From positions 64,001 through 128,000 of the forward strand of contig CAVYSW010000003.1 in assembly GCA_963771275.1 (NCBI GenBank): a DNA stretch of 64,000 nt, in the 5' to 3' direction. Source of the stretch: an uncultured Gemmatimonadales bacterium (GTDB lineage: Bacteria; Gemmatimonadota; Gemmatimonadetes; Gemmatimonadales; GWC2-71-9). Position 1 is the stretch's first letter; every line of letters begins with the position of its first letter. The position numbers and the translations under genes are program-made. Positions 49,407 to 56,012 of this stretch are shown one piece after another. The notes beneath the pieces are model-generated. The model was given only the letters and a program-made list of their open reading frames with translations. It ran no database searches and had not been told where the DNA came from.

Positions 49407-49949
49407 CTACACCACTGCCGACAGCGGGACCGTCAAGCCCGGCAGGACCCCTTCGCCATCCAGGGTGTCGGCCTCCGCCAGCAGCGACTCGCTGCCGTCG
49501 GCGCGGTACACGCGGGCCTGTCGTCGGACGGGGTCCACGACCCAGACGAGCTGACTGCCGGCGCGCAGCCAGTCCGCGACCTTGGCGAGGACTTCTCCGG
49601 GGCGGTCGTCCGGGGAGAGCACCTCGACTACCAGGTCCGGCGCCAGCCTGGCAAATCCGGTGGGCGGCGGGTCCGGCAGCCGCGCTCGGCTGACGAACGC
49701 GACGTCAGGCGCGCGGACCGTGTCGGGGTTCGTGAACAAGGTGAACCCGGTCTCGGCAGCCAACACGCAGCCGAGGCCGTGGCGGTCAACGTGGTCGGTG
49801 ACGACCTTCGCGATCCGGGCAGCAACCTCGCCATGACGGTATCCCGCCGGCTCCCTGACCACCAGGACCCCTCGCACCAACTCGGTGCGCTTGTCCGGGA
49901 GATTGAGGTGCAGGAGATCGTCGGCCGTGAGCCTCGCCGGAGCGCTCAT
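49407..49949 (-). CDS. Uma2 family endonuclease
   Basis: ELVRG..PAGYRH, APDVAFV, PDLVVEVLSP, LVWVVDP. Confidence 0.92.
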   Translation of the reverse strand: MSAPARLTADDLLHLNLPDKRTELVRGVLVVREPAGYRHGEVAARIAKVVTDHVDRHGLGCVLAAETGFTLFTNPDTVRAPDVAFVSRARLPDPPPTGFARLAPDLVVEVLSPDDRPGEVLAKVADWLRAGSQLVWVVDPVRRQARVYRADGSESLLAEADTLDGEGVLPGLTVPLSAVV

Positions 49950-49981
49950 GCCGGCAATGTAGGGATGGTTGTGAGGCATGG

Positions 49982-51714: not shown

Positions 51715-53357
51715 ACATCTACCTCGACGTCGTCTCGCCGGCGGCGAAAGAGGCCGGCGACTACGCCAGCGTCTACGACCTGGAGAACCACGGCCTCACG
51801 AATCTCCGGCGGGTCTACTGGAACCTCCCGACCCCCGCGCTCTACGAGGAGGTCGTGTTCCGCTCGGAGGGCCGGCTCTCCCACCTGGGCCCGATCGTCG
51901 TCAGCACCGGGAAGCACACCGCGCGCGCCGCGGCCGACAAGTTCGTGGTGCGCGAGCAGACCACCGAGCAGCACGTCTGGTGGGGCCAGTACAACCGGCC
52001 GTTCACCGAGGAGAGCTTCAGCGCGCTGCACGCCCGCCTGGTGGGCTACCTCCAGGGACGCGACGTGTTCGTGCAGGACTGCTACGCCGGCTCCGACCCC
52101 GAGTACCGGCTGCCGATCCGCATCATCGCCACCCGGGCGTGGCACGGACTGTTCGCGCGCACGATGTTCCAGCGCATCCGGAACCTCGACCAGCTGAAGA
52201 AGCACGTCCCGGAATTCACCGTCATCGCGGCGCCCTCGTTCATGGCGTCCCCGATGATCGACGGCACGCGGACCGAGACGTTCATCATCATCAACTTCCG
52301 GGAGCGGCTGGCCATCATTGGCGGATCGGCGTACGGCGGCGAGATCAAGAAGACGATCTTCACCGTGCTCAACTTCCTGCTGCCGCTCCAGAGCGTGCTG
52401 CCGATGCATTGCTCCGCCAACGTCGGCGCCGGCGGCGACGTCGCCCTGTTCTTCGGCCTCTCCGGCACCGGCAAGACCACCCTCTCGGCGGACCCCAAGC
52501 GCGGGTTGATCGGCGACGACGAGCACGGCTGGAGCGACAACGGCGTGTTCAACTTCGAGGATGGCTGCTATGCCAAGGTGATCCGGCTGTCGCCCACGGC
52601 GGAGCCGCAGATCTTCGCCTGCACGCGCCGCTTCGGCACCATCATCGAGAACGTCGTGATGGATCCCCTGTCGCGGCGGCTCGACCTGGACGACGACATC
52701 ATCACCGAGAACACCCGCGCGGCCTATCCGCTCGACTACATCGAGAACGCGGTGCCCGAGCGGCGGGCCGGCCATCCCAAGAACGTCATCTTCCTCACGT
52801 GCGACGCGACCGGCGTGATGCCGCCGATCGCGAAGCTCACGCCCGACCAGGCGATCTACCACTTCATCTCCGGCTACACCAGCAAGATCGCGGGCACGGA
52901 GGTGGGCCTCGGCATCGAGCCCGAGATCACGTTCAGCACCTGCTTCGGCGGCCCGTTCATGGTGCACCACCCGTACAAGTACGCCGAGCTCCTGAAGGCG
53001 CGGATGGTCAAGCACGGCGTGGACTGCTGGCTGGTGAACACCGGCTGGACGGGCGGCCCGTTCGGCGTGGGCAAGCGCTTCAGCATTCACCACACGCGGG
53101 CGCTGCTCAACGCCGCGCTCGAGGGCAAGCTGGCCAAGGTGCCGTACAAGCAGGACCCGGTGTTCGGCTTCGCGGTCCCGGCGACCTGCGAGGGCGTCCC
53201 GGACTCGATCCTCGATCCGGCCAACACGTGGGGCAGCCGGGACGAGTACTTCCGCAAGTACGACGCGCTGGCGGCGCGGTTCATCGAGAACTTCAAGCTG
53301 TTCAAGGACGGGTGCCCGGAGCACGTGATCCAGGCCGGCCCCAAGCGGTTGAAGTAA
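51711..53357 (+). CDS. pckA: phosphoenolpyruvate carboxykinase (ATP)
   Basis: YGGEIKK, MHCSAN, GLSGTGKTTLS, LIGDDEHGW, ENTRAAYP, LVNTGW. Confidence 0.97.
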   Translation: MNIYLDVVSPAAKEAGDYASVYDLENHGLTNLRRVYWNLPTPALYEEVVFRSEGRLSHLGPIVVSTGKHTARAAADKFVVREQTTEQHVWWGQYNRPFTEESFSALHARLVGYLQGRDVFVQDCYAGSDPEYRLPIRIIATRAWHGLFARTMFQRIRNLDQLKKHVPEFTVIAAPSFMASPMIDGTRTETFIIINFRERLAIIGGSAYGGEIKKTIFTVLNFLLPLQSVLPMHCSANVGAGGDVALFFGLSGTGKTTLSADPKRGLIGDDEHGWSDNGVFNFEDGCYAKVIRLSPTAEPQIFACTRRFGTIIENVVMDPLSRRLDLDDDIITENTRAAYPLDYIENAVPERRAGHPKNVIFLTCDATGVMPPIAKLTPDQAIYHFISGYTSKIAGTEVGLGIEPEITFSTCFGGPFMVHHPYKYAELLKARMVKHGVDCWLVNTGWTGGPFGVGKRFSIHHTRALLNAALEGKLAKVPYKQDPVFGFAVPATCEGVPDSILDPANTWGSRDEYFRKYDALAARFIENFKLFKDGCPEHVIQAGPKRLK

Positions 53358-53371
53358 GCATCCCGTCACAA

Positions 53372-53449
53372 TACGAACGAGCCGGACGGTGATAACGCCG
53401 CCCGGCTCGTCTTGCGCAGCAAAACTGGCTGCGGACTCGCACCCTGTGG
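53372..53449 (-). ncRNA. predicted anti-tRNA small RNA
   Basis: Own promoter; 5' CCACAGGGUGCGAG is complementary to the adjacent tRNA anticodon arm; hairpin CGCAGC-CAGUUUU-GCUGCG carries the complement of its D-loop; ends in a terminator-like hairpin. Confidence 0.7.
53377..53410. terminator. hairpin, likely bidirectional terminator (pckA and the minus-strand sRNA)
   Basis: ACGAGCCGG (53377-53385) / CCGGCTCGT (53402-53410). Confidence 0.7.
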
Positions 53450-53453
53450 CACG

Positions 53454-53482
53454 ATGATAGGAAGAACGTAGTGCGACGTCAA
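53454..53482 (-). promoter_or_regulatory. sigma-70 promoter for the anti-tRNA sRNA
   Basis: TTGACG (53482-53477), 17-nt spacer, TATCAT (53459-53454). Confidence 0.8.
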
Positions 53483-53493
53483 CAGCACGGCGG

Positions 53494-53577
53494 TGCTGGC
53501 GGTGGGATTCGAACCCACAAGAGCCGAAGCTCCACAGGGTGCGAGCCTGTTGCGTTTGCCAGTTTCGCCACGCCAGC
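53494..53577 (-). tRNA. class II tRNA with tRNA-Leu-like body and CGC (Ala) anticodon
   Basis: GCTGGCG TG GCG AAACTGGCAAA CGC A ACAGG CT-CGC-AC CCTGT G GAGC TTCG GCTC TT GTGGG TTCGAAT CCCAC CGCCAGC A; all stems pair. Confidence 0.93.
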
Positions 53578-53855
53578 ACCTCCACAGCGGCGAGCCACTG
53601 ACAACCCGAAGGCGAGAGACGGAGTACTCGCACCCGTTCCGTGCCGCGCGTCAAGATTGTGCGCTTTGGCCATGATCAGGGTTACCGATTCCTCGCCGAG
53701 ATGACCCGGATCGCGCCGGCGGGCAGGGCCGCCCCGGACCTTCGGGGCTGCCTCCAACCGTCCCGGCCTCCTACCTTTCCCGGCGAGTCGCACCATCGCT
53801 GCACGCGCACCCACGGAGGCTCGGTGACCGCCCGGTCCTTCCGCACGCTCCCGCC

Positions 53856-56012
53856 ATGAGAATCGGCGCCTACGACCCCAGCGCCTGGGCCGGTCTGGTG
53901 TTCTCGGACCAGCCCGGCCGCGGGTTCGCGCTGCGCTGGGCTATCGAGCGGGACGGCGAGCGGGCGGACGGCGCGGATCTGCTGTTCCTGGTGCACGACG
54001 CGGGCCCGCACGACCCCGACGGCGGGTACGCGCGGGTCGAGTTCGACACGTCGCTCCCGTTCGGCAAGGGTGACGACACGCCGCTCGTCAGGAAGTCCCG
54101 CCGCACCGCCGGCCTCACCGTCGAGTGGTCGCGAACGGAGGAGGGCGCCCTCCTCCGCGCGACGGTGGCGTTCCGTGGCGTGCTCGAGCTGAGAGGCTAC
54201 TTCCCGTGGGACTGGGCCGGGCACTGGACCGCGGAGGCCACCGGCATGGCGGCCACCACCGCCGACGGCGGGCTCCGCTGCCGCGTGCGCACCGACCGCG
54301 CGGGCTCGGCCGCCGTGACGGAGCGCGGCGAGGCGGTGCTGCGGTTCGCCGTCTCCCCCGGCGACGCGGTGTACGTCACCGCCGCCGTGGGGGACGACGC
54401 GCCGCCGGCGTACGGGGCGGCGATCGCCGGCACGCTGCTCGACGGGGCGGAAGCCTACGCCGCGCGGCGCGTCGCGGCGGAGGGCGTCTGGGAGGGCCTC
54501 CCGGACTCCATCGCGAACAACATCCATTGGATGGTGTGCCTCCAGCCCGAAACGGGACGGCTGTACACGCCCGCGGGCCGGCGCTGGATCTTCCCTGCCT
54601 CCGCCCCCGGCGGCCGCGACCACTGGACCATCTTCGAGTGGGACTCGTTCTTCAACGCGCTCGAGCTGGGAGTCGAGAGCGAAGCGCTTGCCGTCTCCAC
54701 GCTCGAAGCCGTGCTCGCGACCCAATTCGACAACGGCAACATCCCAAACTGGCGCGGCCGGTTCTGGGGCCCGATGGACCGCTCGCAGCCGCCGGTGGGC
54801 GCGTTCTGCGTGCTGAAGCACTATCTCCGGTTCGGCGACCCGGCCGTGCTGGAACACGCGTTCCCCTACCTCGAGCGCTGGTCGGCCTGGTGGACGGCGC
54901 CCAAGGCCGGCAAGCCCCGGCGCGACGGCAACGCCAACGGCCTGTGCGAGTGGGGCTCGGACGTCGGCCTGGTCCGGCCGTCACCCGCCTCGTGGGAGAA
55001 CGGCACGACCGGGCATCAGCGCGCGGCCTGGGAGTCGGGCGAGGACGATCTCCCCAACTGGGACGACGGCGGCTGGAACGACGCGACGGAGACGATGGAG
55101 CTGGACGCGGTGGACTTGAACAGCTTCCTGGCGCTCGATCACGAATGTCTCGCCACCATCGCCCGGCGGCTCGGGCTCGCGGACCGGGCCGCGTTTCATC
55201 AGGAGCGCGCCACCGCCGTCCGCACCGCGATGAACGACGTCCTGTGGGACGACGGGCGCGGGCTCTATCTCGACCGCCACTGGGACGGCCGCCGCTCGGC
55301 CAGGCTCGCGGCGGCGAACTTCCTGCCGCTGATCGCCGGAGTCCCGAGCCCGGCCCAAGCCGAGCGGATGCTGGCAACCCTGCTCGACCCGGCGCGGCTC
55401 TGGGGGCCTTATGTCGTGCCCACCATCAGCCGGGACGACCCGGCGTTCAAGGACCAGCAGTACTGGCGCGGCACGATCTGGCCGCCCACCAACTACCTGC
55501 TCTATCAGGGGCTGCGCCGCTACGGCTTCGATCAGGCCGCGTCCGAGCTGGCTCAGCGCAGTGTGGATCTATTCCTCGGCACGTGGCGGACGTATCGCCT
55601 GTGCCGCGAGAACTACGACGCGCGCACCGGCGCGGGCGGCGGGCACCGCTACCAGAGCTGGGGACCGCTGTTCGCGCTGATCGGGATCGAGGAGTTTCTC
55701 GACGTGACGCCGTGGGACGGCCTCCGCATCGGCGCGCCCGCGGCACCGGGGCGCACCGTGCTGCGCCGGCTCCGCGCCCGGGGACACGCGTGGACCGTGA
55801 CGCTGGCCCCCGACGGGATGCGCGTCGAGATGGACGGCTCGCTGCTGTTCGAGAGCGACCGCCTGGTCGTGGCGCGTCAGGTCGAGGTGACGGCGGACGA
55901 GCTACGTGCCGAAGTGACGGCGAGCGTCGAGACGACGTTCCGAGCCGCCGGGGGGAGTCGCACGCTGAAGGCCGGCGAGCAGCACGTGGTCCTGCCGCGC
56001 CGGCCCGCGTGA
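53856..56012 (+). CDS. GH63/MGH1-like glycoside hydrolase
   Basis: FEWDSFF, RSQPP, RDGNANGL.EWG, WESGEDD, YWRGTIWPP.NY, ENY. Confidence 0.88.
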   Translation: MRIGAYDPSAWAGLVFSDQPGRGFALRWAIERDGERADGADLLFLVHDAGPHDPDGGYARVEFDTSLPFGKGDDTPLVRKSRRTAGLTVEWSRTEEGALLRATVAFRGVLELRGYFPWDWAGHWTAEATGMAATTADGGLRCRVRTDRAGSAAVTERGEAVLRFAVSPGDAVYVTAAVGDDAPPAYGAAIAGTLLDGAEAYAARRVAAEGVWEGLPDSIANNIHWMVCLQPETGRLYTPAGRRWIFPASAPGGRDHWTIFEWDSFFNALELGVESEALAVSTLEAVLATQFDNGNIPNWRGRFWGPMDRSQPPVGAFCVLKHYLRFGDPAVLEHAFPYLERWSAWWTAPKAGKPRRDGNANGLCEWGSDVGLVRPSPASWENGTTGHQRAAWESGEDDLPNWDDGGWNDATETMELDAVDLNSFLALDHECLATIARRLGLADRAAFHQERATAVRTAMNDVLWDDGRGLYLDRHWDGRRSARLAAANFLPLIAGVPSPAQAERMLATLLDPARLWGPYVVPTISRDDPAFKDQQYWRGTIWPPTNYLLYQGLRRYGFDQAASELAQRSVDLFLGTWRTYRLCRENYDARTGAGGGHRYQSWGPLFALIGIEEFLDVTPWDGLRIGAPAAPGRTVLRRLRARGHAWTVTLAPDGMRVEMDGSLLFESDRLVVARQVEVTADELRAEVTASVETTFRAAGGSRTLKAGEQHVVLPRRPA

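Follow-up and report, generated by a model that had tools for sequence, protein, structure and literature searches.

A Leu-type tRNA with an alanine anticodon and a complementary small RNA form a conserved multi-copy RNA module in Gemmatimonadota

In a 64,000-nucleotide stretch of DNA from an uncultured Gemmatimonadales bacterium (GenBank assembly GCA_963771275.1, contig CAVYSW010000003.1, positions 64,001 to 128,000; referred to as the window), we analyzed an intergenic region of the minus strand in which an odd transfer RNA (tRNA) gene is closely followed by a gene for a putative small RNA (sRNA) complementary to that tRNA. The tRNA is of the leucine type and carries the anticodon CGC. Comparison with related loci reveals a conserved RNA module family, present in multiple copies in one lineage, and strongly supports a specific duplex between the tRNA and the sRNA. 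As judged from the aligned modules, the complementarity is pair-specific, changes in step with the anticodon arm, and is maintained at the level of RNA.

The tRNA gene (53492-53577, minus strand) encodes a class-II tRNA of 86 nucleotides (nt), i.e., one with a long variable arm, and was called by both ARAGORN and the Rfam tRNA family (RF00005; 57.8 bits versus a gathering score of 29, model positions 1-71). According to ARAGORN, its anticodon CGC (53541-53543) lies in the loop CUCGCAC and would read the alanine codon GCG. The D-arm is of the Leu type, one base away from that of the genome's own tRNA-Leu(UAA), and the molecule ends in A73-C74-C75. The long variable arm, A73, and the D-arm form the Leu identity set known from work in E. 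coli; all three are present in the odd tRNA, whereas an anticodon for a leucine codon is not. The acceptor stem comprises 7 base pairs (bp) and the T stem 5 bp, a longer stem being formed only in the precursor via the leader. Position 3:70 is U:A in the window and C.A or G:C in the paralogs.

Downstream of the tRNA, a sigma-70-like promoter (TTGACG-17-TATCAT, 53454-53482, minus strand) agrees with the consensus at 10 of 12 positions. A consensus scan found no other sigma-70-like site in 53200-53900, and shuffled sequences held a mean of 0.1. The -35 box begins 9 nt beyond the tRNA end set by ARAGORN or 11 nt beyond that set by Rfam, which corrects the gap of 12 nt given in an earlier, sequence-only reading of the region. 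The putative sRNA itself (about 78 nt, 53370-53448, minus strand) is supported by a covariance model of the sRNA (R1; 57.4 bits) and an alignment of its homologs (A1). Over 14 nt, its 5' single strand (53436-53449) is exactly complementary to the anticodon loop together with the 3' side of the anticodon stem. This 14-mer is an exact inverted repeat of 53532-53545, with two matches in the window versus 0.07 expected, and none of 100 shuffles reached a count of two. A second repeat of 19 nt with 79% complementarity connects 53411-53429 with 53558-53576, i.e., the D-arm and the 5' strand of the acceptor stem, and encloses the shorter D-arm-pairing block (53419-53429) described in the sequence-only reading. 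Hairpin 1 of the sRNA (53415-53433), a 6-bp stem CGCAGC/GCUGCG, is antisense to the same D-arm and acceptor strand, and a terminator hairpin (53377-53410, of which 53379-53408 are assigned to the hairpin within the sRNA) with a U-rich tail would close the transcript. The sRNA is antisense to nearly the whole 5' half of the tRNA. All elements listed in the earlier reading (odd tRNA, promoter, exact repeat, second block, and both hairpins) were recovered in place, and cofolding of the two RNAs, which it had proposed as a check, gave -104.5 kcal/mol for the pair compared to -79.7 kcal/mol for the RNAs apart. Rfam searches of the region at the gathering score and at E-values of up to 5 returned tRNA only; matches to PtaRNA1, YrlA, and the HDV-ribozyme were far below threshold.

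The genome (3.86 Mb, 11 contigs, 96.7% complete) encodes a full canonical tRNA set, in which all five Leu isoacceptors and a regular tRNA-Ala(CGC) are represented. Beyond this set, there are five Leu-like class-II odd tRNAs, three with the anticodon CGC and the others with GGC and GGU. Downstream of each lie a promoter-like site, a complement of its own anticodon arm, a small hairpin, and a terminator. Among 61 ARAGORN-called tRNAs, the neighbouring one was the best duplex partner for four of the five sRNAs, by a margin of 6-13 kcal/mol. When the whole genome was searched for complements of at least 14 nt to each sRNA 5' end, only the respective own tRNA was found. The genuine tRNA-Ala(CGC) was considered as a target and rejected, as it was outside the six best duplex partners of each of the five sRNAs. 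In addition, the genome holds an orphan sRNA gene (G000:C5:15272-15346, minus strand; L179/L184) with its own promoter (TTGACT-17-CATCGT) that lacks a tRNA on its upstream side. The sequence of its 5' part, GUGCGAGUCCGCAGCCAG, agrees with that of the window's sRNA, so that this orphan could pair with the window's tRNA as well.

Family members were collected by four routes, i.e., BLAST with the module, a D-arm pattern scan, the covariance model R1, and a pattern scan of metagenome contigs. The BLAST search against 40 relatives produced matches in 15 of 41 genomes, the window's own counted. Scanning of GTDB species genomes for the D-arm pattern returned 121 loci, and the metagenome scan, whose pattern forced C36-A37, returned 121 loci as well. 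The collection amounted to 46 distinct genome modules and 98 distinct metagenome modules, the two sets not being de-duplicated against each other. R1 was run on 150 genomes of the phylum plus that of the window and matched (E up to 0.001) in 18 of the 151, with one to seven copies each. These matches were confined to two of the families sampled (15 of 72 and 2 of 2 genomes, the window's genome excluded), and the other ten families sampled had none (e.g., 0/31, 0/16, and 0/11). Neighbouring copies are often separated by no more than a few kb. In 4 plus 121 genomes of Thermoleophilia, R1 gave no match, which speaks only to the Gemmatimonadota sRNA family being missing from them. Wherever a named record contains an odd tRNA followed by a complementary sRNA, it is a Gemmatimonadota record; these records comprise Gemmatimonadales, Gemmatimonadaceae, unclassified Gemmatimonadota/Gemmatimonadetes metagenome-assembled genomes (MAGs), and 'bacterium HR33', which we take to be a member of Gemmatimonadota. 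Canonical tRNA-Leu genes of the phylum and of others showed chance complements of at most 7-13 nt, G:U pairs allowed, and no R1 match.

The modules share a common 5' to 3' order: upstream boxes, a leader of about 75 nt, the tRNA ending in A73-C-C, a short trailer, -35 and -10 boxes, and the sRNA. The promoter boxes of the sRNA, aligned in 38 modules, read TTGAC(T) at -35 and TAnnnT at -10. The sRNA begins with (Y)AC and continues with 12-22 nt complementary to the anticodon arm, hairpin 1 (consensus GCGUAGC-CAGUUUC-GCUACGC), and the terminator. Sigma-70-like promoter criteria were passed by 27 of the 46 genome modules, and in 21 of these 27 scored promoters the -10 box ends 5-7 nt before the start of complementarity, so that the transcript would start with the anti-anticodon.

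Whether the anti-anticodon covaries with the anticodon in related genomes had been named in the sequence-only reading as a check, and the comparison bears this out. In the 46 genome modules, duplexes between the sRNA 5' region and the module's own anticodon arm reached a mean of -35.4 kcal/mol versus -20.7 ± 5.8 kcal/mol for non-own arms; the own tRNA ranked best in 32 of 46 cases and among the top two in 40. The 98 metagenome modules behaved alike (own -34.6 versus non-own -21.7 ± 6.3 kcal/mol), and 71 of their sRNAs contain an exact complement of the own 7-nt anticodon loop, compared to 1.2% for other loops. Complementarity extends well past the anticodon arm: in the sRNA alignment it spans tRNA positions roughly 2-44, and duplexes of the sRNA with the tRNA 5' half averaged -59.1 kcal/mol in 41 modules versus -27.6 kcal/mol for shuffled sRNAs. 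At aligned sRNA:tRNA positions, we counted 1062 Watson-Crick pairs, 100 G:U, 27 A:C, and 83 other combinations in 36 genome modules, and 2974, 267, 58, and 181, respectively, in metagenome modules; these counts come from related, non-independent sequences and are given without a p-value. The roughly fourfold preponderance of G:U over A:C points to pairing between transcripts of this strand and not to homogenization at the DNA level. Furthermore, the sRNA hairpins are conserved as structures. In alignment A1, 88% of cells were paired versus 39-47% when partner columns were slid, changes on both sides occurred in 13 of 19 pairs, and none of 500 shuffles scored as high.

Within the family, conservation extends over approximately 125 nt on the upstream side of the tRNA. 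An alignment of 38 upstream regions displays conserved boxes (53649-53692, minus strand), i.e., a GGAAYGRTRAC-like box at 53681-53692 and a -10-like CAATCT at 53654-53659, which lie about 20 nt apart in the alignment. They presumably mark the promoter region of a tRNA precursor, and the sigma-70 consensus scan called no promoter at these boxes. Family alignments and inverted repeats define a structured 5' leader of about 75 nt (53578-53655, minus strand). Its 5' part GCGGCACGG (53639-53647) forms the 5' strand of a 9-bp helix, P1, with the 3' trailer CCGUGCUGU (53482-53490) as the opposite strand. An inverted-repeat comparison revealed a 9-mer complementary to the anticodon region, GGGUGCGAG (53627-53635), inside a hairpin ACGGA...UCCGU, and family alignments revealed a UUCG hairpin (53605-53614). 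The terminal GGAGGU of the leader lengthens the acceptor stem; a repeat finder likewise reported a 13-nt pairing that prolongs this stem with leader and trailer bases. RNAalifold, applied to leader, tRNA, and trailer together, returned the cloverleaf with an acceptor stem lengthened by leader pairing to A73-C74 and with P1 just after the ACC end; on the leader alone, it returned almost no structure. P1 occurs in three compensating versions across the family (GCGGCG:CGCCGC, GCCAG:CUGGC, and GCGAGG:CCUCGC). Its own-versus-other scores are close together (5.9 versus 5.5) because most modules share one helix type, and support for P1 therefore rests on the three helix variants. A further helix within the leader, P2, was drawn by hand; pairing in it reaches 75% and includes a CG<->UA exchange, which amounts to modest support. 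The canonical tRNAs of this genome do not encode CCA, and the alignment reading shows the ACC end kept in 44 of 46 odd tRNAs; ACC is therefore more likely conserved for pairing with the leader's GGU. The leader also holds a degenerate anti-tRNA copy. Since leader:tRNA pairing was weak (-43.1 versus -33.0 kcal/mol for shuffled leaders) and the mismatches lacked a G:U excess (41 versus 34), we do not claim such a pairing. Together, the conserved leader and the leader-trailer helix show a tRNA whose predicted primary form is a larger structured precursor.

The tRNA and the sRNA differ in how often they persist without their partner. We inspected 30 loci from the 46 listed matches of R1, a model that ignores the tRNA. 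Eighteen have an odd tRNA called by ARAGORN, in 17 cases directly upstream and with matching complementarity; in the remaining one (L176), the sole tRNA at the locus belongs to a neighbouring module (that of L157). In four loci the tRNA is disrupted or truncated, by a T-loop insertion in L164 and by deletion of the 3' part in L172, L174, and L178. The insertion in L164 (G092:C100, upstream of 9348; anticodon GAC) measures about 60 nt and may represent a disrupted gene or an intervening sequence; the sRNA at this locus is intact and still complementary. Seven further loci have no tRNA or only its last bases (L155, L159, L166, L168, L169, L177, and L179, the orphan of the window's genome), and one is doubtful (L167, E 7.9e-4). 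Conversely, of the 121 metagenome loci found by their tRNA, 106 gave R1 scores of at least 31 bits, four are cut before the sRNA position, ten have tRNAs that look like another family, and a single one has no sRNA. Survival of the sRNA after decay of the tRNA is thus common and the opposite rare, which is the pattern expected if an unopposed tRNA is harmful. As indirect evidence, this evolutionary behaviour fits a protective sRNA and a harmful tRNA.

With regard to decoding, the odd tRNAs retain the T-loop, the GG of the D-loop, and a 7-nt anticodon loop, and A37 is present in 46 of 46. The anticodons of the family are CGC, GGC, UGC, CAC, GAC, CUC, UUC, GUC, and, rarely, GGU; they read GNN codons plus ACC. 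tRNAs that read GNN codons are not known to require a bulky modification at position 37. Preference is given to the most frequent codons of the genome: GCG takes first place (69 per 1000), GCC second, GUG fifth, GAG eighth, and GAC ninth, as counted in a crude set of 1850 long open reading frames (ORFs) with high G+C content at third codon positions (high GC3). In studied bacteria, as in the E. coli work, leucyl-tRNA synthetase (LeuRS) ignores the anticodon. The genome has a single LeuRS-specific domain match, and a search of it for a second LeuRS or a paralog found none. A reassignment of GCG to leucine was rejected, as Pfam scores fell under such a code in three of three proteins (PEPCK from 642.5 to 606.7, ClpP from 280.3 to 256.6, and the AAA_2 domain of ClpX from 114.2 to 108.9); GCG is therefore still read as alanine.

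These features suggest the following course of events. The first gene would provide a Leu-type tRNA whose anticodon CGC reads GCG, the commonest codon of the genome, as part of a precursor in which the 5' end of the leader would pair with the 3' trailer and the last leader bases with the ACC end. The second gene, with its own housekeeping-type promoter 9 nt downstream, would provide an sRNA of about 78 nt directed with its 5' end against the anticodon loop and with its body against the tRNA 5' half. This sRNA may contact the anticodon loop first and then zip along the 5' half, thereby blocking decoding and unfolding the tRNA, possibly to the benefit of cleavage by RNase III. Any tRNA left free would receive leucine from LeuRS and insert it at alanine codons. 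The module would thus act either as a toxin-antitoxin or addiction pair, or as a tightly locked conditional missense tRNA. That the sRNA is an antisense lock on a decoding-capable missense tRNA (alanine to leucine) is a proposition for which we see an even chance. The full reading as a toxin-antitoxin or defence system, i.e., an RNA-only addiction or abortive-infection module with the tRNA as toxin, is put forward more tentatively and seems to us doubtful rather than probable. Under it, a Leu-charged tRNA against the commonest alanine, valine, glutamate, or aspartate codon would be stored as an inert leader-locked precursor and neutralized by a short-lived antisense sRNA; if sRNA synthesis stopped upon locus loss, transcription shut-off, or phage attack, matured tRNA would cause a flood of missense incorporation, and the cell would stop.

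A number of observations weigh against a decoding tRNA held by a separate antisense RNA, or against its role as a toxin. Outside the anticodon arm, the odd tRNA is no more similar to the genome's own tRNA-Leu (identity 0.67-0.72) than to its tRNA-Ser or tRNA-Sec (0.74-0.75), and leucine charging is deduced from A73 and the D-arm only. U33 is found in only 28 of 46 odd tRNAs and C33 in 18, an unusual state for a tRNA that decodes efficiently. Conservation of C36-A37 could stem from demands on the sRNA start rather than from decoding; C36 is present in 44 of 46 tRNAs of the genome set, which is the only unbiased set in this respect, as the metagenome pattern had forced both positions. The fifth module of the window's genome (C3:143434) is degenerate in both tRNA and pairing, and L284 has a leader and a tRNA and no sRNA, the sole such case in the 107 metagenome loci that were judged. 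A terminator is missing between the tRNA and the sRNA, and read-through transcripts could thus act in cis. Four RNA runs sharing the organism label contained 0 reads over 52600-54100, a result with no bearing on expression, and none of the listed holders of the locus is an RNA record. Finally, the modules lie between ordinary chromosomal genes and not on recognized mobile elements. Searches with the module gave no match on plasmids; the only phage match was the annotated tRNA-Leu of Phaeobacter phage MD18, and the single IMG/VR contig with a matching tRNA had no sRNA.

The chromosomal setting would suit a regulated, adaptive form of mistranslation, in which the module is a host-beneficial switch and serves neither addiction nor defence: under stress, the sRNA would fall or the leader would be processed, and leucine in place of alanine, valine, glutamate, or aspartate would diversify the proteome. 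Here, the location in ordinary intergenic regions, in the window between pckA and a glycosidase gene, would be expected, and C33 in 18 of 46 tRNAs would damp decoding. Natural mistranslating tRNAs often lack U33, according to a 2024 review (PMC11415595). Moreover, the upstream boxes differ from the sigma-70-like promoter of the sRNA, and the two genes may therefore be regulated separately. The patchy distribution (18 of 151 genomes), the copy number of one to seven, and the frequent decayed tRNAs and orphan sRNAs look, however, more like selfish turnover, and we consider such a switch unlikely.

It is also conceivable that the tRNA is not used in translation at all. The tRNA fold would then serve stability, processing, or protein binding, with the anticodon arm as a recognition module for the sRNA; one RNA might sponge or regulate the other, and the real output might lie elsewhere, e.g., in short-seed targets of the sRNA. 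Judging by the 75-nt leader, by P1 and P2, and by the ACC end being sequestered, the mature species may be larger than a tRNA; U33 is not conserved, and a role as 'regulatory noncoding RNAs' has been raised for allo-tRNAs by Mukai et al. (PMC5389517). Set against this are the complete nucleotides of the tRNA tertiary fold, kept together with the 7-nt loop and A37 in 46 of 46, the restriction of anticodons to GNN-reading ones plus ACC with a preference for the commonest codons, and the lack of any other genomic target of at least 14 nt. We regard this explanation as quite unlikely.

A single cis-acting transcript, reading through from the tRNA to the downstream terminator, in which the 'sRNA' segment folds back and controls processing and a separate sRNA is of no importance, would agree with the missing terminator between the two genes and with the trailer being part of helix P1. 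It would leave unexplained why conserved -35 and -10 boxes keep a constant spacing to the point where complementarity begins and why orphan sRNA genes, which R1 finds as free-standing units, keep promoter, hairpin, and terminator without a tRNA; we hold it to be very improbable. Both the sRNA and the leader resemble parts of the tRNA 5' half copied in inverted orientation, and they probably arose as such, but a mere inverted repeat at the DNA level, i.e., a recombination or inversion site or a product of gene conversion with no function in RNA pairing, is extremely improbable given the bias of G:U over A:C on the transcribed strand (100 to 27 and 267 to 58), the covarying sRNA hairpins with conserved promoter and terminator, and the lack of a recombinase gene beside the nine flank-annotated loci.

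Regarding the surroundings of the modules, that of the window sits in the gap between pckA (PEPCK_ATP; plus strand, ending at 53357) and a gene for an MGH1-like/trehalase-type glycosidase (starting at 53856), and the neighbouring genes are convergent or divergent. An all-against-all BLAST of ORFs around the five loci of the genome revealed no shared neighbour except a Ser/Thr kinase at two, and Pfam searches on the flanks of annotated loci found ordinary genes and no conserved protein partner. A Ser/Thr kinase gene (Pkinase) adjoins the module in four of the nine flank-annotated loci (G000:C9:159325-160950, G000:C10:79947-82142, L185:4002-6740, and L187:1-2769), on differing sides and in differing orientations, with TPR repeats in three of the four. 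The genome holds 49 Pkinase matches in 3.86 Mb, and some ordinary tRNA genes also lie beside kinases. Other neighbours include an ORF with a Uma2 (putative restriction endonuclease) domain in the window (49407-49979, minus strand; E 1e-32), 3.4 kb from the module and adjoined by an unannotated ORF of 165 amino acids, and a gene for a Phd/YefM-type antitoxin about 480 nt upstream of the GGC module (G000:C9:161837-162118; L182:6838-7119), beside which lies an ORF of 80 amino acids of no known type. A stretch of 5.4 kb from the third CGC module to the contig end (G000:C3:1870400-1875863; L181:7400-12864) contains no high-GC3 ORF; our guess is a ribosomal RNA operon.

A second conserved family of Leu-like class-II tRNAs was encountered in many other phyla, which shares the D-arm and A73, has a T-arm of the form UGCGGGUUCRAGUCCCGCC, and carries non-Leu anticodons: UGG (proline) in 14 loci, and also UUC, CUA, UUA, CCU, UUG, ACC, AGA, UGA, GGG, and AGG. 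Its hosts are Phycisphaerae, Acetobacteraceae, Verrucomicrobiae, Acidobacteriota, Actinomycetota, and others, including one Gemmatimonadales MAG (L031, L048, L052, L054, L055, L066, L069, L070, L077, L079, L081, L084-L086, L090, L092, L096, L098, L102, L103, L113, L117, L118, L123, L134, L141, L142, and L146). There was no sRNA match among the R1-searched loci (L029-L128) and no downstream complement at any locus. The metagenome scan contained ten similar tRNAs with the anticodons GUC, AUC, and UGC.

The author of the sequence-only reading knew of no described system with this layout, and we likewise found none among the matches listed in open-access papers and bioRxiv, nor any Rfam family match other than tRNA. 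A dedicated anti-tRNA sRNA was not found among these literature matches either. The closest relatives in concept are the allo-tRNAs, which, in the sections considered here of the original paper and of a review, are described as tRNAs with a long variable arm from soil phyla, whose acceptor and T stems have 8/4 or 9/3 geometry and whose identity is Ser or Ala (PMC5389517; PMC7609411). Their authors suggested missense suppressors and/or regulatory RNAs, and toxin-antitoxin genes were noted nearby (Mukai et al., NAR 2017, PMC5389517). By these accounts, the long variable arm, the origin in soil phyla, an identity that mismatches diverse anticodons (Ser there, Leu-like here), multiple copies, and pseudogenes are shared. 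The odd tRNAs differ by their 7/5 geometry in place of a 12-bp branch divided 8/4 or 9/3, and by A73 instead of G73 together with the Leu-type D-arm in place of Ser identity (or Ala identity via G3:U70). The description of allo-tRNAs, in the same sections, includes no dedicated sRNA, conserved leader, or leader-trailer helix, and the word 'antisense' occurs 0 times in PMC5389517 and PMC7609411. A further parallel is tRNAProX with its synthetase ProRSx from Streptomyces and Kitasatospora, where, according to the 2024 review, one identity is combined with anticodons for Ala, Thr, or Asn (PMC11415595). On that basis, both are naturally encoded bacterial tRNAs of one identity with foreign anticodons; tRNAProX is a class-I, Pro-type tRNA, whereas the odd tRNAs belong to class II, face a single LeuRS, and have an RNA partner and no protein partner.

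Type I toxin-antitoxin systems such as hok/sok likewise employ a trans antisense RNA with its own promoter that is complementary to an RNA made next door, and they have paralogs in several copies and orphan antitoxins. The hok mRNA is an inert folded precursor with a 5'-3' fold-back, and sok is the trans antisense RNA, a logic that the module resembles; the toxin there is a small membrane protein made from the mRNA, whereas here no ORF is involved and the tRNA would be the toxin. Toxin and antitoxin are both RNAs in type VIII systems, to which SdsR/RyeA belongs and among which CreT is reported to act by sequestering a rare tRNA. In CreTA, according to PMC9458426, the toxic RNA CreT is repressed by Cascade under the guidance of CreA, a CRISPR-like RNA. 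In the present module, by contrast, the candidate toxin is a tRNA that would be bound directly by its antisense RNA, and no CRISPR repeat or Cas gene is involved. T-box leaders, too, pair with a tRNA anticodon through a codon-like triplet in a structured leader, whereas here 14-20 nt or more of an odd, dedicated tRNA take part in the pairing and no downstream gene is controlled; an Rfam search of the region at E-values of up to 5 gave no T-box match. T-boxes lie upstream of aminoacyl-tRNA-related genes and sense the charging of ordinary tRNAs. As regards tRNAProX, some members travel with a dedicated synthetase paralog.

As far as found, the conserved leader, its helix with the trailer, and the RNA pairs that covary are new even if the tRNA never decodes. 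If the proposed function is true, pairing of a dedicated antisense RNA with the anticodon would be a new way in which cells handle a tRNA, and a miscoding tRNA would be a new kind of toxin in toxin-antitoxin biology. Natural genomes would then keep missense tRNAs against their commonest codons under an RNA lock. The question of programmed mistranslation would become directly testable, as each module provides a defined tRNA, a defined inhibitor, and compensatory-mutation controls. Orthogonal pairs of tRNA and anti-tRNA, five of them in one genome, may also serve as switches for engineered genetic codes.

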